Source: a virus
Lineage: Duplodnaviria > Heunggongvirae > Uroviricota > Caudoviricetes
IMG/VR virus record: IMGVR_UViG_2648501392_000016
Span: 1 to 6,622 of that record
Strand: one strand, 5' to 3'
Length of the DNA: 6,622 bases
Part shown: positions 1-6,622 of the stretch, piece after piece
Layout: the number at the start of each line of letters is the position of its first letter
Position numbering within the stretch: the stretch's first letter is position 1
Position numbers and translations under genes: made by a program
Notes under the pieces: model-generated
What the model was told of the DNA's origin: nothing
Database searches by the model: none
Seen by the model: the letters and a program-made list of their open reading frames with translations, nothing else

Positions 1-24
1 GATTCGGTATCAGAAGAGGTGAGT

Positions 25-1095
25 ATGGCTAACGCCTGGCTCAGATTATGGCATGACATGCCAAATGACCCTAAGTGGCGAACAATTGCCAGGGTGTCAG
101 GGCAGCCAATTGCAACAGTGATGGCAGTGTATATCCACCTCCTGGTGAGCGCGTCACGAAATGTCACGCGAGGTCACATTGATGTCACGACAGAAGATTT
201 GGCAAGTGCGCTCGACGTGACAGAAGAGGTAATTGATTCAATTTTGCAGACGATGCAGGGGCGGGTACTTGATGGTGATTTAATCACTGGATGGGAAAAA
301 CGCCAGGTGCTGAAAGAGGACAACGGCAATATTTCGCAAACCGCAAAATCTCCTGCAGAGCGCAAGAGGGCGCAGCGAGAGAGGGAAAGAAAGCGGGAAC
401 AAAATGGCGATTGTCACGGCGCGTCACGAAATGTCACGCACATGTCACGACGAGTCACGACAGATAAAGATACAGATAAAGATACAGATAAAGATACAGA
501 TAAAGATACAGATCAAGAAGATCAAAACACTATGGTCCATGGCGTAAAAAACGCCACGAACCAGGCAGGGGATGTTCAGACCGTCAATCCTGGTCAGCCA
601 GCAGGCACGACACCGGAAGCCGATTCGGGCGCTGTGCAGCAGGTGATGACCGCAAGGCCGGAGCAATCACACCAACTGCAGCAGCCCGAAGCCGATTCCG
701 CCATTCAGCGGGAAGCCGATCGGGTAGTCCCGGAAAACACCGGGCAGTCTGTGGGACGAGTGGATTATCCGGATGTGTTCGAACAGGTCTGGCGGGAGTA
801 CCCGTTGCGTGCCGGAGCAAACCCGAAGAAATCCGCATTCAGTGCCTGGAAGGCCAGATTGCGCGAGGGGGTGCCACCAGAGACCATGCTGGATGGTGTG
901 AGGCGTTACGCGAGATACCTGGCGGCGACCGGGAAAGCGGGAACGGAATTTGTTCAGCGAGCGACGACGTTTTTTGGGCCGGACCGGAATTTTGAAAACC
1001 CCTGGTTGCTCCCGGTAAGCGGCACGAACAACCAGCGTTGCGTGAATCACATTTCTGAACCGGACACTGAAATACCGCCGGGATTCAGGGGGTGA
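25..1095 (+). CDS. Phage replication initiation protein, YdaU/DUF1376-like (O-like initiator); in-frame alternative GTG start at 19
   Basis: Long ORF; AGAGG(14-18)/GAGGT(16-20) RBS ahead of ATG 25. N-terminus (MANAWLRLWHDMPNDPKWR...) recalled as resembling Rac prophage YdaU-type proteins. Sits directly upstream of a DnaC-like loader gene, the usual O-P arrangement. Contains internal iterons and a low-complexity TDKD linker. Confidence 0.7.
   Translation: MANAWLRLWHDMPNDPKWRTIARVSGQPIATVMAVYIHLLVSASRNVTRGHIDVTTEDLASALDVTEEVIDSILQTMQGRVLDGDLITGWEKRQVLKEDNGNISQTAKSPAERKRAQRERERKREQNGDCHGASRNVTHMSRRVTTDKDTDKDTDKDTDKDTDQEDQNTMVHGVKNATNQAGDVQTVNPGQPAGTTPEADSGAVQQVMTARPEQSHQLQQPEADSAIQREADRVVPENTGQSVGRVDYPDVFEQVWREYPLRAGANPKKSAFSAWKARLREGVPPETMLDGVRRYARYLAATGKAGTEFVQRATTFFGPDRNFENPWLLPVSGTNNQRCVNHISEPDTEIPPGFRG
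153..189. repeat. Iteron-like direct repeat array A: GTCACG/GTCACA at 153, 163, 173, 184, with an inverted copy CGTGAC at 215-220
   Basis: Read directly from sequence: four hexamer copies spaced 10, 10 and 11 bp apart (one helical turn). The 19-mer gcgtcacgaaatgtcacgc at 151-169 recurs at 421-439. Confidence 0.5.
413..459. repeat. Iteron-like direct repeat array B: five GTCACG copies at 413, 423, 433, 444, 454; candidate replication-origin iterons
   Basis: Read directly from sequence: five perfect GTCACG hexamers at 10-11 bp spacing inside the initiator gene, immediately upstream of the tandem repeat. Analogous to lambda ori iterons lying within the O gene. Confidence 0.5.
460..519. repeat. 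12-bp tandem repeat (acagataaagat), four perfect copies plus one degenerate copy; encodes (TDKD)n in the initiator protein
   Basis: Read directly from sequence: perfect copies at 460-471, 472-483, 484-495, 496-507, degenerate copy 508-519. In frame with the CDS and translated as TDKDTDKDTDKDTDKDTDQED. Confidence 0.85.
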
Positions 1096-1101
1096 CGTGT
1101 C

Positions 1102-1848
1102 ATGAAAAACATTGCGGCAGTTGGGGTTCTTGAACGTATTCGCAGACTTGCACCACAGGGGGCGGTTCCACCGTACCGGACGGTGGAGGAGTGGCGGGAA
1201 TGGCAACTTGCTGAAGGACGAAAACGCAGCGAGGAGATTAACCGCCAGAATCGCCAGTTGCGGGTGGAAAAAATCCTGAATCGTTCGGGCATCCAGCCTC
1301 TGCACAGCAAATGCTCGTTTGCGAATTATCAGGTGCAGAATGACGGGCAAAAATACGCGCTGAGCCAGGCCAAATCCATAGCTGACGAACTGATGACCGG
1401 GTGCACGAATTTTGTGTTCAGCGGTAAAACCGGCACCGGGAAAAATCACCTTGCAGCGGCGATGGGTAACCGGCTGATGGCGAAGGGGCGCAGCGTGATT
1501 ATCGTCACCGTGTCTGATGTCATGAGCGTGTTGCATGACAGCTACGACAACGGCAAATCCGGGGAAAAATTTTTACAGGAGCTTTGCGGGGTTGATTTGC
1601 TGGTCCTGGATGAAATAGGCGTTCAGCGGGAGACGAAAAACGAGCAGGTGGTATTACACCAGATAATTGATCGCCGGACAGCATCACTGTGCAGTGTCGG
1701 GATGTTAACAAACCTGAATCATGCCGCAATGAGCACGCTTCTTGGTGAGAGGATTATGGACCGGATGACCATGAGCGGTGGTCGATGGGTGACGTTTAAC
1801 TGGGATAGCTGGCGTCCAAATGTCAGCAATATGAGGGTTGTGAAGTAA
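1102..1848 (+). CDS. DnaC/IstB-like AAA+ ATPase, phage replicative helicase loader (Rac YdaV-like)
   Basis: 248-aa ORF starting 7 nt after the upstream stop. Walker A-like FSGKTGTGKNHLAAA and Walker B LLVLDEIG are visible in the translation; size and position match DnaC-like phage replication proteins. Confidence 0.85.
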   Translation: MKNIAAVGVLERIRRLAPQGAVPPYRTVEEWREWQLAEGRKRSEEINRQNRQLRVEKILNRSGIQPLHSKCSFANYQVQNDGQKYALSQAKSIADELMTGCTNFVFSGKTGTGKNHLAAAMGNRLMAKGRSVIIVTVSDVMSVLHDSYDNGKSGEKFLQELCGVDLLVLDEIGVQRETKNEQVVLHQIIDRRTASLCSVGMLTNLNHAAMSTLLGERIMDRMTMSGGRWVTFNWDSWRPNVSNMRVVK

Positions 1849-1869
1849 TTTTGTCCGGAGGAAATTTTA

Positions 1870-2640
1870 ATGGAAACCGTATCTGACGCACTGAAAGCAC
1901 TGAAAAAAGCCTCTTCACATGTGGTGGCAGCTCGCCTTGGAATCAGTCGTGAAGAGGCTGTCAACGAGCTGTGGGAACTCAAAAGAAATGGCGTCGTTGA
2001 TAAAACTGGTCACACCTGGTTTCTGGCTGGCGAAGGTGAATCCCTGGTAACCGAAGAGCTGCCAGTAAAATCTGAAGCACAGGATATGCTGACCGGGGAG
2101 GTCGAACAAAAAGTTACCGCAGACATGATGATTGAGTTTATCGGTCAGGATGGGGCTAAAACGTGTGAGGAACTGGCGGGTAAGTTCGGCGTCAGTACTC
2201 GCAAGGTTGCTTCCACGCTGGCGGTGGTAACCGCAACGGGGCGGCTGGCACGCGTTAATCAGAGCGGTAAATTTTGTTACTGCATGCCGGGCGATAATTT
2301 ACCAGCAGAGTCGAAAGCCGCGCTGGTAACGGAAAATGATGGTAAGGCCTTTCCTCAGCCAGCAGGTGCTGCGTTACCAGTCCGGGAAGCCGCAACACAG
2401 GAAGAAATTAAAACAGAAACTGTGGCGGACATTGTGCAGCCGTTGCTATCGTTTACCGAAACGCAAGCAGATGAGCTGATTTTTCCGTCCCTGCGCAGGG
2501 CAAACCTGGCGCTGCGCAGGGCGAAAAGTGATGTTCAGAAGTGGGAGCGAATCTGCGCCGCGCTGCGGGAGCTGAACAAGCACCGGGATATTGTTCGACA
2601 GATTACTGATTCTTCCCGCCGTGTTGTATCGGAAAAGTGA
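1870..2640 (+). CDS. Phage hypothetical protein (256 aa); N-terminal region may be winged-helix-like
   Basis: GGAGG RBS at 1857-1861, 8 nt before ATG 1870. Uninterrupted ORF in the same orientation as the replication genes. No recognisable catalytic motif. Confidence 0.65.
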   Translation: METVSDALKALKKASSHVVAARLGISREEAVNELWELKRNGVVDKTGHTWFLAGEGESLVTEELPVKSEAQDMLTGEVEQKVTADMMIEFIGQDGAKTCEELAGKFGVSTRKVASTLAVVTATGRLARVNQSGKFCYCMPGDNLPAESKAALVTENDGKAFPQPAGAALPVREAATQEEIKTETVADIVQPLLSFTETQADELIFPSLRRANLALRRAKSDVQKWERICAALRELNKHRDIVRQITDSSRRVVSEK

Positions 2641-2655
2641 TTGCCGAAGGCGCTT

Positions 2656-3081
2656 ATGGCAAAAGTATTTACACAAGAAGAGCGAGAAAAAATTAAAGGG
2701 CAGGTTGTTGAGCTAGTACGCCGGAGTGGGCGCGAGACGTTACGGCAACTGGAAGCCAAGACAGGTGCGACAAGATATCTGATGAGCGTTCTTGCCAGAG
2801 AGCTGGTTGCCAGTGGTGATGTATATCACTCTGGCTATGGGTTGTTCCCGTCAGAACAGGCGCGTAAGGACTGGCAAAACGCCCGCAAAAAACTCTCGAG
2901 GGCAAAGGTGAAGAAACCTGTTGTGGTTGATCCGGGCCTTATCTGGACATTACCCGACGGAGAAATACACCGCTACGACAGGCGTATGAACATAATCTGT
3001 CGCGAGTGCCGGAAGAGCGAAGCTATGCAGCGTGTACTGGCATTTTATCAAGGAAATGTTAGATATTTTAGACGTTACTAG
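2656..3081 (+). CDS. Phage hypothetical protein (about 141 aa); track ORF begins at TTG 2641 but ATG 2656 with a GAAGG RBS is preferred
   Basis: ORF directly follows the upstream stop at 2640; GAAGG at 2645-2649 precedes ATG 2656. Basic C-terminus containing a CxxC pair (CRECRK). Does not match lambda NinB as I recall it. Confidence 0.6.
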   Translation: MAKVFTQEEREKIKGQVVELVRRSGRETLRQLEAKTGATRYLMSVLARELVASGDVYHSGYGLFPSEQARKDWQNARKKLSRAKVKKPVVVDPGLIWTLPDGEIHRYDRRMNIICRECRKSEAMQRVLAFYQGNVRYFRRY

Positions 3082-3108
3082 ATTAAAGAGCATTAGTTCA
3101 GATGTGAA

Positions 3109-3137
3109 TTGACATTTTCATGGCGCAGGGTAGAGCC
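3109..3137 (+). promoter_or_regulatory. Candidate sigma70 promoter for the cargo island (perfect -35 TTGACA, weak -10); alternative extended -10 TGcTACACT at 3213-3221
   Basis: TTGACA at 3109-3114 with TAGAGC 16 bp downstream (3 of 6 matches to TATAAT). Lies in the 153-bp gap between the phage genes and the QueH-like gene. Sequence-only guess. Confidence 0.2.
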
Positions 3138-3234
3138 AGCGTGGTTGTCCGCTTTGCGTCAAAACCAGAGATTACCAGATTTAGACATATATTCCCGATA
3201 GCCCTGCTCTGATGCTACACTCTGTGCTATTTTC

Positions 3235-3921
3235 ATGACCCCAATAAAAATATTTATGACTATTGCTGATTTCAAACGGCCTAAATTGGAGCTTCCAAAC
3301 GGGGCAAACAAACTACTACTGCACTCTTGCTGTGCTCCATGTTCCGGTGAAGTGATGGAGGCGCTTCAGGCCTCGGGAATCGACTACACCATCTTTTTCT
3401 ACAACCCGAACATTCATCCTCAGAAAGAGTATTTAATTCGTAAGGATGAAAATATTCGCTTTGCTGAACAACACGGCGTGCCGTTTATCGATGCTGATTA
3501 CGACACCGACAACTGGTTTGAACGTGCCAAAGGAATGGAATGGGAGCCTGAGAGGGGGATCCGTTGTACCATGTGTTTTGACATGCGTTTTGAGCGGACA
3601 GCGTTGTACGCTGCTGAAAATGGTTTCAGTGTGATCAGTAGTTCACTGGGCATTTCACGCTGGAAAAATATGCAGCAGGTTAACGAGTGTGGGCGGCGAG
3701 CTGTTGCGCATTATCCGGGTATGGTGTACTGGGATTATAACTGGCGCAAGCAGGGCGGCTCGTCCCGTATGATTGAAATCAGCAAGCGCGAAAAATTCTA
3801 TCAGCAGGAATATTGTGGCTGTGTGTATTCTCTGCGCGATACCAATCTACACCGCAAATCTCAGGGACGCCCTCTTATCAAAATTGGCCAACTCCACTAC
3901 GGAAAAGAAGAGAAGGAGTGA
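3235..3921 (+). CDS. QueH-family (DUF208) epoxyqueuosine-reductase-like Fe-S protein; alternative start ATG 3256
   Basis: The translation carries the [11 protein letters not shown] and FYNPNIHP motifs that I recall as hallmarks of DUF208/QueH, plus further Cys pairs (CTMC, CGC) consistent with metal-cluster ligation. No strong SD before either candidate ATG. Confidence 0.65.
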
Positions 3922-3991
3922 TTTTATGGATCACCTTTCTGATTGATTTCATATTGGCGAGGTGACGTGAGTTAAGTAGAATTGCTGCGGG

Positions 3992-4016
3992 TGCCTGAGG
4001 CTGTCTGCCTCAGGCA
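3992..4016. other. Perfect 9-bp inverted repeat (TGCCTGAGG, 7-nt loop, CCTCAGGCA) between the QueH-like and methyltransferase genes
   Basis: Read directly from sequence. No T-tract follows (downstream is gaacaccaaaagg), so it is not a canonical intrinsic terminator; it could be a protein-binding site or an RNA stem-loop. Confidence 0.4.
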
Positions 4017-4099
4017 TGAACACCAAAAGGCAGATAGAGAAAGCCCCAGTTAACATTACGCGTCCTGTAAGACGCTCAACATTAATCTGAGGCATATGG

Positions 4100-5224
4100 A
4101 TGCGGATGAAAGAATTAAATAAATTCAGAGTGATAGACCTCTTTTGTGGGGCAGGTGGATTATCTTATGGTTTTCTTCATGGAGAGATGTCTGACTACTT
4201 TGAAAGTATCCTTGCTATTGATAATAATGCTGCAGCTATAAATACCTACAATGCCAATTTTGGTTTGCATGGAGTTCAGGCAAATATTGAGGAGTGGGCA
4301 TCCAGCAATACTGTTCCTGAGGCTGATGTGGTCATAGGTGGCCCCCCGTGTCAGGGATTCAGTTTATTGAATAAGAATCGTTATGGTGATCACCGAAGAG
4401 CATTGTGGGAGCCTTATATGGATGTCATTGAGCGTTCAAGGGCTTGTATGTTCGTCATGGAAAATGTCCCCGGATTGCTGATAAGCGATGAGTTTGCGGA
4501 CATTACGTTTAGAGCGAAATCCATGGGCTTTATTCTGCTTAATCCAATGGTGTTGAATACTGCTGACTATGGAGTACCTCAGACAAGAAAACGAACGATA
4601 GCAATCGGTATCAAACGAGAACTCTTCGATGTGCATAGTATTCCGGCGTTCCCGCCAGCACCAACGCATCGTTCCCCTGATAAGGATGTCGCTTTGCCTG
4701 AATGGGTCTGTACGCGTGATGCAATTGGTGACTTACCTGCTCCTGTTGGAACTGATATTCGTAATGAACTTCCTCCGCTGAACTTACATTTTGGGCGTAA
4801 TCCCACACCTGTTTCTCTGGAGCGATATAAAGCGGTTCCACCAGGAGGTAACCGTTTCGATTTACAGAAAAAAAGACCTGATATAACCCCGGCGTGCTGG
4901 CTAAAAAAGAAATCTGGAGGGACCGATTTGTTTGGACGTCTGTGGTGGGACAAACCTTCAGTAACGATTCGTACTGAGTTTTTCAAACCGGAGAAAGGGC
5001 GATATTTACATCCGGAAGAGGATCGGCCAATAACTCATCGTGAGGCAGCGAGATTAATGTCTTTTCCTGATAATTTCATTTTTACCGGTTCAAAAACTGA
5101 GATTGCAAAGCAGATCGGGAATGCTGTTCCACCGCTATTTGCGGCAAAAATCGCACAATATGTGTATGGAGTTTTGCAGGGACGGTATAAGAATAACATC
5201 AGTAAGAATAGTCAAGCAGCCTGA
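4100..5224 (+). CDS. DNA (cytosine-5)-methyltransferase, type II R-M modification subunit
   Basis: Canonical m5C-MTase motifs in the translation: motif I DLFCGAGGLSYGF, motif IV GGPPCQGFS, motif VI ENVPGL, motif VIII QTRKR, motif X GNAVPP. GAGG RBS at 4088-4091. Confidence 0.9.
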   Translation: MRMKELNKFRVIDLFCGAGGLSYGFLHGEMSDYFESILAIDNNAAAINTYNANFGLHGVQANIEEWASSNTVPEADVVIGGPPCQGFSLLNKNRYGDHRRALWEPYMDVIERSRACMFVMENVPGLLISDEFADITFRAKSMGFILLNPMVLNTADYGVPQTRKRTIAIGIKRELFDVHSIPAFPPAPTHRSPDKDVALPEWVCTRDAIGDLPAPVGTDIRNELPPLNLHFGRNPTPVSLERYKAVPPGGNRFDLQKKRPDITPACWLKKKSGGTDLFGRLWWDKPSVTIRTEFFKPEKGRYLHPEEDRPITHREAARLMSFPDNFIFTGSKTEIAKQIGNAVPPLFAAKIAQYVYGVLQGRYKNNISKNSQAA

Positions 5225-5237
5225 AGGAAATCCAGAA

Positions 5238-6116
5238 ATGAATGGAGATTTGGTTGACAGCATAGTTGGTTTTGCTGAAGCCAGAAAGGAGTTTCATGCC
5301 CAATTGTTACTGAATACGCTCACAATTAATACTGCCGGAGTTGTTAGTAACGCAGATAGCAGTAACAAAAACAGTAAAGCTATAGCAAGAGAAATTGCTC
5401 GCTTCTTGCAGGCTGAAACGATTGGTGAACGTGTTGCAGGGCAAACATCTGGTAATCAGTTTGAGAGTATCTGCGCAGAGTTTATAGAAAAAACCTTTTT
5501 TAAACTCAGCCACTTACGCCCTGGAAAATGGAATGTACATCAGGTTTCTGGTAGAAACAGATTAGAGATAGCTAAATATGAACAATATGCCCATCTTATA
5601 GCATTGGATAGTGCTGCAAAAAGTAATCCTCAGCTAGCTGCTGCACTGGGGAGTGATTATACGATTTCACCAGATATTATTGTTGAAAGAGAACCTGAAT
5701 GTGATCAAGTTATCAACAGTCCTGAATTACTGGTGGATGATTCTGTTACCCGCATGTCAGCTCTCAGGAGTTCGAATGGTGGGAAACCAATATTACACGC
5801 AAGTATTTCCTGCAAATGGACAATAAGAAGCGACCGGGCCCAGAATGCTCGTTCTGAGGCATTAAATCTTATTCGCAACCGTAAGGGAAATCTCCCTCAT
5901 GTAATGGTTGTTACTGCTGAGCCTACTCCAAGTCGTCTGGCGTCTATTGCTCTTGGTACTGGTGATATAGATTGCGTGTATCATTTTGCGCTTTATGAAC
6001 TTATATCAGCAGTTGAAATACTGGGGCTCAGCGATGCAGCTGACATGCTTTCCGTGATGGTTAATGGTAAAAGATTAAAGGATATTTCTGATCTTCCCTT
6101 GGATCTTGCAGTCTGA
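5238..6116 (+). CDS. Type II restriction endonuclease, NgoMIV/Cfr10I/Bse634I family (predicted CCGG-core site, possibly GCCGGC); start ATG 5238 preferred over track start 5103
   Basis: AGGA RBS at 5225-5228, 9 nt before ATG 5238, which lies 13 nt after the MTase stop. The translation has PD at 145-146, SCK at 191-193 and RSDR at 197-200. Numbered from ATG 5238, E76, D146, K193, R197, D199, R200, E207 and R233 all sit at a constant +6 offset from the NgoMIV residues E70, D140, K187, R191, D193, R194, E201 and R227 as I recall them from the literature. Confidence 0.75.
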   Translation: MNGDLVDSIVGFAEARKEFHAQLLLNTLTINTAGVVSNADSSNKNSKAIAREIARFLQAETIGERVAGQTSGNQFESICAEFIEKTFFKLSHLRPGKWNVHQVSGRNRLEIAKYEQYAHLIALDSAAKSNPQLAAALGSDYTISPDIIVEREPECDQVINSPELLVDDSVTRMSALRSSNGGKPILHASISCKWTIRSDRAQNARSEALNLIRNRKGNLPHVMVVTAEPTPSRLASIALGTGDIDCVYHFALYELISAVEILGLSDAADMLSVMVNGKRLKDISDLPLDLAV

Positions 6117-6188
6117 CATCTCTACGTAAATAGAGTCTGTCATATTTTAACTGTGATGGCACGTCATTGACTTCAGTACATTTTTACT

Positions 6189-6214
6189 AACCCGCTTCGC
6201 GGGTTTTGTTTTTT
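6189..6214 (+). terminator. Rho-independent terminator closing the R-M operon
   Basis: 7-bp GC-rich stem AACCCGC/GCGGGTT with a 3-nt loop, followed by the T-tract TTTTGTTTTTT; 73 bp downstream of the endonuclease stop. Confidence 0.7.
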
Positions 6215-6286
6215 CCTGGCATTCTGGTTTACAATCCACACGCCAGCCTGAACAACTGGCACCTGCTGCGCCAGCAGAGACAACCG

Positions 6287-6532
6287 ATGGCGCACAATAC
6301 CAAACACCACAATTCTGATGCCGACCCTGCCAGCAGACACGGACGGCGCTCTCACGCATTCAAATATGACTGGTACCAGCATGACCAATGCACTGAAGAA
6401 CAGGCCGAGTGGCTGATTCAGAATTACCGCAGACGTGGATACCAGTTTCAGAAAGGCCTCAGTCCTGACTTCCGACGCTGGATAATTTCCGTCAGGCTCC
6501 CTTATTCCGAACGCCCGCCGCGTCCGTCCTGA
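6287..6532 (+). pseudogene. Hypothetical ORF apparently truncated by the IS insertion (its stop codon is supplied by the IS terminus TGA)
   Basis: The open frame (from 6206; first ATG with a weak RBS at 6287) runs without a stop until the TGA at 6530-6532, which is the first three bases of the IS inverted repeat. The product is not recognised and coding status is uncertain. Confidence 0.3.
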
Positions 6533-6622
6533 ACCGCCCCGGGAATCCTGGAGACTAAACTTCCTGAGAAAGAGGTAAACAGGATGACTAAAAATACTCG
6601 TTTTTCCCCTGAAGTCCGTCAA
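6530..6622 (+). mobile_element. IS3-family insertion sequence (IS629/IS1203-like), left end; continues beyond the window
   Basis: Terminal sequence TGAACCGCCCCGGG... and an OrfA N-terminus MTKNTRFSPEVRQ recalled as the IS629/IS1203 group; 5'-TG terminus is typical of the IS3 family. Confidence 0.7.
6584..6622 (+). CDS. IS3-family transposase OrfA (partial, N-terminal 13 codons in window)
   Basis: GAGG RBS at 6572-6575 then ATG 6584; translation MTKNTRFSPEVRQ matches the remembered OrfA start of IS629-like elements. Truncated by the window edge. Confidence 0.7.
   Translation, partial: MTKNTRFSPEVRQ

Follow-up and report, generated by a model that had tools for sequence, protein, structure and literature searches.

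Whether a short repeat inside a phage gene reflects a repeated peptide or a set of binding sites in the DNA is the question raised by the first gene of a 6,622-nucleotide stretch of Caudoviricetes DNA (IMG/VR record IMGVR_UViG_2648501392_000016, positions 1 to 6,622; the whole stretch is called the window below). The gene encodes a protein of the phage replisome organizer type, referred to here as the initiator, and contains two arrays of the hexamer GTCACG, the second of which is followed by an AT-rich tandem repeat. An earlier note made from the sequence alone had proposed that these arrays are origin iterons placed inside the initiator gene, as in lambda-type phages. The analysis described here finds that the hexamers are DNA-level sites under selection and not a repeated peptide. 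Judged from sequence comparison, the GTCACG arrays are likely to be protein-binding iterons and the segment 153-519 a candidate origin composed of iterons and a DNA unwinding element (DUE) and recognized by the very protein whose gene encloses it. The proposed core of this candidate origin consists of array 2 together with the AT-rich tract.

Exact copies of GTCACG, counted on both strands, number nine in the window, and all of them lie within 307 bp (153-459). Shuffling gives an expectation of 2.6 copies, and nine were reached in none of 200 shuffles; the initiator gene contains, above chance, direct repeats in arrays of four and five, where at least three had been looked for. Five exact copies are indeed present at 413-459, as the earlier note had counted. 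An array also exists at 153-189, where four copies had been reported, but only three of these are exact; the other is GTCACA in the window and GTCACG in most homologs. The inverted copy is likewise present, at 216-221 and not at 215-220. Both the 10-11 bp spacing and the duplication of a 19-bp block (gcgtcacgaaatgtcacgc) at 151-169 and 421-439 proved correct. Homologs were collected by a scan of one genome per species, which yielded 56 loci from gamma-, beta- and alpha-proteobacteria and from metagenome-assembled genomes (MAGs) of Acidobacteria; single loci are cited below by an L number. In 20 homologous loci the iteron spacing is 10 bp in 85 cases and 11 bp in 28, so that the hexamers all fall on one helix face. 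The conserved core is 6 bp long, with weak flanks and no internal dyad. No other hexamer cluster is found in 18.5 kb of the prophage. The features are collected in Table 1. Just upstream of array 1, TATATCCAC at 131-139 agrees with a DnaA box at 7 of 9 positions; it is not conserved in homologs, and the likeness is probably due to chance.

Table 1. Features of the candidate origin and its replication module in the window (AT-rich tract given as a candidate DUE).
Feature	Position	Strand	Details
Initiator gene, 356 aa, 'phage replisome organizer' type	25-1095	+	Open reading frame (ORF); phrog_3729 'replication initiation protein', E=5e-243
Iteron array 1 (candidate): GTCACG at 153, 163 and 184, GTCACA variant at 173-178	153-189	+	Spacing 10/10/11
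Inverted hexamer copy (CGTGAC on the + strand), 27 bp past array 1	216-221	-	Exact-motif scan
Iteron array 2 (candidate): GTCACG at 413, 423, 433, 444 and 454	413-459	+	Spacing 10/10/11/10; proposed main array for binding of the initiator
AT-rich purine-skewed tandem repeat ACAGATAAAGAT x4.9 (12-bp unit), candidate DUE	460-519		Encodes (TDKD)n
Imperfect palindrome, 13 pairs, loop 5, just past the AT-rich stretch	533-563		Origin membership uncertain
DnaC-like helicase loader, partner gene in the replication module	1102-1848	+	PF01695 IstB_IS21, E=2.8e-19, 70 bits against a cutoff of 24.1

Inside the gene the hexamers are read in different ways: as gcG TCA CGa (Ala-Ser-Arg), GTC ACG (Val-Thr), gGT CAC Att (Gly-His-Ile), tGT CAC Ggc (Cys-His-Gly) and aTG TCA CGa (Met-Ser-Arg). 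Because the 10/11-bp period shifts successive copies through the three frames, it is the DNA that repeats, and the peptide follows. In about 24 loci from genomes of 34-69% G+C (GC) content, GTCAC stands at the same gene positions (129, 139, 149, 160, ~389, 399, 409 and sometimes 418), and the inverted copy at gene nucleotide 193 is conserved in most loci of the GTCACG class. A codon alignment of 23 homologous loci covering the same range of genome GC content was then used to measure codon choice. The normalised codon entropy is 0.18 for the 17 iteron codons against 0.80 for 58 other conserved codons (Mann-Whitney p=1.8e-8). Within array 1 the alignment has TCA for Ser44 (22/23), GTC for Val47 and ACG for Thr48 (23/23 each), GGT for Gly50 (23/23), CAC for His51 (22/22), GTC for Val54 (23/23) and ACG for Thr55 (22/23). 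The same holds for array 2, with CAC for His131 (21/21), TCA for Ser141 (23/23) and GTC for Val144 (23/23), and for the inverted copy, where Val65 is GTG in 20/20 homologs of the GTCACG class. Other residues conserved to the same degree (Arg7, Leu8, Pro13, Arg19, Thr20, Gly79, Arg80, Val81 and Arg93) use 4-6 codons each. Conservation of the hexamers at the nucleotide level beyond what the codons need, which the earlier note had named as a check, is thus borne out.

The indels among homologs fit a repeat that belongs to the DNA. Array 2 has between 2 and 7 copies; compared with other genera, E. coli (Escherichia coli) and Citrobacter have 7 residues (21 bp, two iterons) inserted in it, and in E. 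albertii a corresponding two-iteron insertion is found in array 1. The distance between the arrays, ~260 bp in the window, ranges from 157 to 350 bp in homologs with a median of about 260.

The hexamer itself varies between groups of homologs, and does so in both arrays together. Four classes (GTCACG, GTAACG, CGAACG(C) and GTGACG) each have the same hexamer in both arrays. More distant subfamilies lack GTCACG and have a different hexamer in its stead at both sites. Of 47 motif-bearing loci, 42 show the layout with two arrays. The encoded peptides shift with the class, as where Ser-Asn-Ala-Thr-Glu-Arg-Gly-Arg-Thr-Gln represents three CCGAACGCAA units read in three frames. The closest comparison comes from Erwinia, where L023 is of the GTCACG class and its close relatives L021 and L024 of the GTAACG class: C is replaced by A at every homologous iteron of both arrays, which is a synonymous GTC-to-GTA change (Val) in frame 1 and turns His into Asn in frame 2. 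Two further arrangements were seen among the homologs. The Edaphobacter (Acidobacteria) MAG locus has seven CGAACG copies in array 2 and no array 1 (L036:3346-3412), so the layout can do without array 1 in at least one lineage. In L045 and L053 yet another class of repeat, GTAGTAACTACG / CTACG, forms two clusters, with AAGATAAAGAT repeats after them.

These observations bear on the explanation that the repeats are a by-product of a needed amino-acid motif, SRNVT or xVT. That explanation can draw on ASRNVT, which occurs at residues 43-48 and again at 133-138 and whose residues are invariant in the alignments. It is opposed by the reading of the copies in three frames as different peptides (ASR, VT, GHI, CHG, MSR), by the fixed codon choice at synonymous sites, by the quite different peptides (NATERGRTQ) that other classes encode at the same place, by the synonymous switch from GTC to GTA that follows the change of class, and by the position of array 2 in a stretch encoding a predicted disordered linker. 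The case that had been set against the origin proposal from the start, an SRNVT peptide with synonymous variation in homologs, was looked for and failed, given the three frames and the nearly invariant codons; a peptide origin of the repeats is accordingly given almost no weight. As little weight falls on constraint from a gene overlapping in another frame or on the other strand, or on functionless repeats prone to slippage. Program-made ORFs do overlap the region (291-467 and 404-547 on the + strand, 174-365 on the - strand), and repeat number does differ among strains. No alternative frame stays open across the homologs, however, with a minimum open stretch of 0-6 codons over either array, and the constraint is therefore not accounted for by a gene overlapping the arrays. 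Neutral slippage, for its part, would neither preserve the 6-bp core unchanged in both gamma- and beta-proteobacteria nor change it in a concerted way.

The sequence that follows array 2 adds a second feature of an origin. The 12-bp tandem repeat runs from 460 to 518, directly past the array, in agreement with the claim that the second array abuts a low-complexity linker. Positions 461-520 have 28% GC and an AT skew of 0.58, with the A excess on the coding strand, and form the lowest-GC stretch within positions 1-1200. An AT-rich region adjoining the repeats, as is looked for at origins, is therefore present. In 39 of 46 homologous loci the lowest-GC 40-nt window of the gene starts between -10 and +30 nt from the end of array 2, and the 40 nt past array 2 average 31% GC and 75% purine, against 55% GC for the gene. 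Repeats of the (c)AGATAA(A/G)A(T)A type stand directly past array 2 whatever the iteron class, and the codons GAT-AAA-GAT for Asp-Lys-Asp are used in 18-21 of ~20 loci, including genomes of 60-69% GC. The sequence encoding the low-complexity linker is thus a probable DUE. In ori-lambda a palindrome lies to the right of the AT-rich region. Besides the palindrome of the window, small palindromes recur in homologs 30-60 nt past array 2, often as CCCCC...GGGGG encoding Pro-Pro...Gly; compared with the remainder of the gene they are only modestly enriched (score 6.1 vs 5.3).

The initiator protein was examined by profile searches and structure prediction. Its gene is labeled hypothetical or phage replisome organizer in RefSeq and NCBI, and no Pfam family was returned above threshold for the whole protein (E<=0.01), the sole return being a spurious sub-threshold match to TFIIF_alpha; there is no match to the Pfam family Phage_rep_O, and the protein does not belong to the lambda O family. 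Residues 5-125 match TIGR01714 (phage_rep_org_N) with 19.0 bits (E=0.0012), which suggests distant relatedness to the N-terminal domain of phage replisome organizers; since the score is far below the cutoff of 49.8, membership in the G38P-type family is not established. An AlphaFold2 model built from a 43-sequence alignment has a pLDDT (predicted local distance difference test) score above 90 for residues 11-90 and below 50 for residues 134-167. The predicted layout comprises a winged helix (residues 1-95), a basic helix (110-130), a disordered linker (134-172) and a modular C-terminal domain. The fold predicted for the N-terminal domain is that of a winged helix, with the elements in the order helix 29-45, loop or bridge 46-55, helices 56-63 and 67-77 and hairpin 78-87. 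A Foldseek search of the model against the PDB gave no match below E=0.4, and a sequence profile search of the PDB gave only a marginal match to DnaT (E=0.63). Likeness of the N-terminal domain to the winged helices of DnaD and RepA_N proteins is at the level of the fold only, and CRP-type winged helices score equally well. On this model array 1 codes for residues A43-T55, the end of helix 1, the loop and strand 1 of the winged helix, and array 2 for residues C130-T145 in the predicted linker. Array 1 thus codes for part of a folded domain and not for a linker, an unusual placement that the earlier note had missed. The program-made ORF starts at GTG 19; the start used here, ATG 25 (MANAWLRLW...), is backed by RefSeq and by the homolog alignment.

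Among homologs the N-terminal domain and the arrays are joined to differing C-terminal domains, and the downstream partner gene varies while they remain constant: DnaC-like in the window and in L016, lambda-P-like in L003, weakly G39P/P-like in L004 and DUF6475 in L033 and L029. The similarity of E. coli genomes to the window usually ends within the AT-rich repeat. Such a pattern would be expected of an origin-recognition module combined with exchangeable loader-recruitment modules. A short C-terminal tail, PD..IP.GFRG (1054-1095, residues 344-356), is common to homologs whose C-terminal domains are otherwise unrelated; the tail region weakly matches the C-terminus of the primosomal protein DnaT (NF002770, E=0.0016) and may be a short docking motif for loader or helicase. 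In the linker of a Serratia MAG (L045:3300-3710) and of Pantoea (L053:3320-3700), a domain of ~90 residues is inserted (YVYFVV..YVGIS.NPW.R), which resembles GIY-YIG domains by eye only.

The gene neighborhood was taken from a prophage of E. coli E110019 that lies at ~2.6505 Mb in NZ_CP035751 and is 99.9% identical to the window. Its genes run in the order repressor, cro-like regulator, YdaT (cII-like), initiator, DnaC-like ATPase, DUF1627, DUF977, QueH and an NgoMIV-type restriction-modification pair, and this order puts the initiator in the position of lambda O and the ATPase in that of P. The ATPase scores 505.9 bits against NF009043, above the cutoff of 389, which places it in the DnaC/IstB-type loader family, and it matches the DnaC equivalog NF005931 with E=2e-89. 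Gene order, the predicted winged helix and the conserved AT-rich trough all support the lambda-type layout proposed at the outset.

The candidate origin would operate as follows. Induction would lead to rightward early transcription and to production of the initiator and the DnaC-like loader. The N-terminal winged helix would then bind the GTCACG hexamers on one helix face, if the initiator is the protein that reads them. The five-copy array 2 would nucleate an oligomer beside the (ACAGATAAAGAT)n stretch at 460-519, which would subsequently melt, and the modular C-terminal domain would bring the DnaC-like loader and the host DnaB to the opened DNA. Array 1 and its inverted copy, ~260 bp upstream, would most likely load or wrap the initiator, or else regulate it. 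The origin assignment rests on the selection at the DNA level, the covariation of the two arrays, the conserved AT-rich trough, the gene context and a fold that fits an initiator.

Several points weigh against this assignment. Literature on binding, melting or origin activity was not found for any member of the family. Lambda has no counterpart to array 1, placed as it is where a folded domain is encoded. A fixed helical phase or distance between the arrays was not found among the homologous loci, which leaves a specific looped geometry unsupported. No residues that cleanly track the hexamer class were found in the winged helix outside the iteron-encoded segments; there the domain is nearly identical across classes, relatedness is a confounder where L023 differs from L021/L024, and in principle the reader of the sites could be another protein. 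The linkage of iterons and protein is not independent evidence, because the arrays lie within the gene and the linkage is automatic. Gene conversion between the arrays (concerted evolution) could also contribute to their identity. The loop encoded by array 1 was considered as the determinant of specificity and rejected, since one hexamer class can be accompanied by unrelated loops or by none: L036 is without array 1, the array of L050 is displaced, and the loops of L029, L032 and L040 differ from each other.

Several of these points could also be taken to mean that the hexamers are DNA-level protein-binding sites that do not, or do not only, form an origin. Their role might be regulatory, by autorepression or as a roadblock to transcription; they might control replication by a handcuffing-type mechanism, act as a centromere-like site, or be bound by a host factor or another phage factor. 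The placement of array 1 in a folded-domain coding sequence together with its conserved inverted copy, and the lack of class-specific residues found in the winged helix, are in keeping with such roles. Two clusters of short repeats with 10-11 bp phasing are known as well from elements other than origins, namely plasmid partition centromeres and control arrays such as P1 incA. Against this stand the AT-rich purine-skewed trough past array 2, which every class retains, genomes of 60-69% GC included, and the identity of the gene as the initiator of an initiator-loader module. In addition, no partition genes were seen in the prophage gene neighborhood, and the hexamers form no cluster elsewhere in the 18.5 kb prophage. 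Non-origin sites are on this evidence rather improbable as an account of the locus, and viable for array 1 alone.

Two further readings reach past an ordinary lambda-type origin. Array 1 could assist loading as an accessory site, or it could instead exert control. As a control element in the coding sequence of the DNA-binding domain, it could let the initiator gate its own synthesis or could pair with array 2, with autorepression, a roadblock or handcuffing as conceivable modes. The hexamer classes GTCACG, GTAACG, CGAACG and GTGACG, together with the CTACG type, may in turn constitute an origin-specificity code. These readings, with array 1 as control element and the classes as a code, are tentative and on balance doubtful. 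If the code were real, several prophages of the family could replicate in one E. coli without cross-talk, and specificity would change by concerted single-base switches at at least eight sites under coding constraint.

Origins inside the initiator gene form a functional grouping, to which the present candidate belongs and which includes ori-lambda in O, SPP1 oriL in the G38P gene and those of RepA_N plasmids. Ori-lambda lies in the middle of O and consists of iterons and an AT-rich tract, with extra iterons adding residues to O (PMC7466680). Like lambda ori/O and its Shiga toxin (Stx) phage variants, the present locus has its candidate origin in the initiator gene at the boundary between a DNA-binding N-terminal part and a loader-engaging C-terminal part. 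In both systems an AT-rich tract comes straight after the iterons, which differ in number and so add residues to the protein, the loader gene is next, and the position after cro/cII is shared; array 2 and its neighboring tract encode a predicted disordered linker, as in lambda. Unlike lambda O, the initiator has no sequence homology to O and no Phage_rep_O match, the loader in the window is DnaC-like and not P, and a second array is present within folded-domain coding sequence. Lambda iterons are dyad-symmetric sites of ~19 bp, whereas the repeats here are direct, have a 6-bp core every 10-11 bp and do not form such sites. In SPP1, oriL with its iterons and DUE lies inside gene 38 (PMC5737612). 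The present locus resembles the G38P/oriL pair in having the candidate origin in the organizer's own gene, with repeated boxes, an adjacent candidate DUE and a loader gene downstream (PMC5737612), as well as in the weak N-terminal match to phage_rep_org_N and the NCBI name phage replisome organizer. It differs in that the second SPP1 region, oriR, is far off and non-coding, while the second array here is ~260 bp away in the same gene. The standard signature of an origin, seen in ori-lambda and SPP1 oriL alike, is a set of iterons with an AT-rich tract directly behind it.

In RepA_N proteins a DnaD-like domain binds iterons and the C-terminal domain is variable (PMC7145576). The likeness to RepA_N initiators of plasmids and satellites (pSK41, pTZ2162 and the RepA of Vibrio PLE) is at the level of the fold only, and RepA_N iterons are usually longer and semi-palindromic. 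The present locus also shares with the P1 and F plasmids two separated clusters of one repeat; unlike theirs, both of its clusters are coding. Those plasmids (P1 incC/incA, F ori2/incC) have one iteron cluster at the origin and an auxiliary one, placed in non-coding DNA on either side of the rep gene, and the auxiliary cluster is a proven negative control element. A search of the literature on GTCACG iterons, or on the origin of this initiator family, found nothing relevant, and papers on the 'Eru' replication types of Stx phages neither cover the module nor discuss the iterons. The origin family has apparently not been described before; though of an unsurprising kind, it is backed by comparative evidence of unusual clarity.

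Other early genes of the prophage were annotated in passing. A QueH epoxyqueuosine reductase (PF02677, E=1e-65) is encoded at 3235-3921 (+). Between it and the cytosine methyltransferase gene, 3989-4169 (+) matches the Rfam family RF01794 'sok antitoxin (CssrC)' with 61 bits against a gathering score of 59 (E=4e-12), which suggests a hok/sok-like toxin-antitoxin locus in the early region. The complete NgoMIV-type restriction-modification pair occupies 4100-6116 (+) and consists of a C5 cytosine methyltransferase (PF00145, E=4e-54) and the NgoMIV endonuclease (PF09015, E=1e-126). The endonuclease starts at 5238 in RefSeq, and the overlap seen with a long TTG ORF is not real.

The prophage is proposed to be of a lambdoid, Qin/Rac-like type that is very common in E. 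coli. The N-terminal 150 residues of the initiator have more than 1100 relatives, and up to 4 prophages with this initiator family occur per E. coli genome; phage records encoding the N-terminal domain number only 25, and none is a model phage. The module of initiator and candidate origin is carried by 1817 of 5426 complete E. coli genomes (about a third), yet it is annotated as 'hypothetical' or 'replisome organizer'. A located candidate origin provides a target for studies of induction and replication in Qin/Rac-like prophages, including those of enteropathogenic (EPEC) and Shiga toxin-producing (STEC) strains, and helps to improve how prophage origins are annotated. The family also provides a clean natural case of binding-site selection overriding codon choice, in which a repeat placed in three frames dictates the peptide. 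It further presents concerted switching of specificity at many sites, for which the GTCACG and GTAACG sister elements form a natural test pair.

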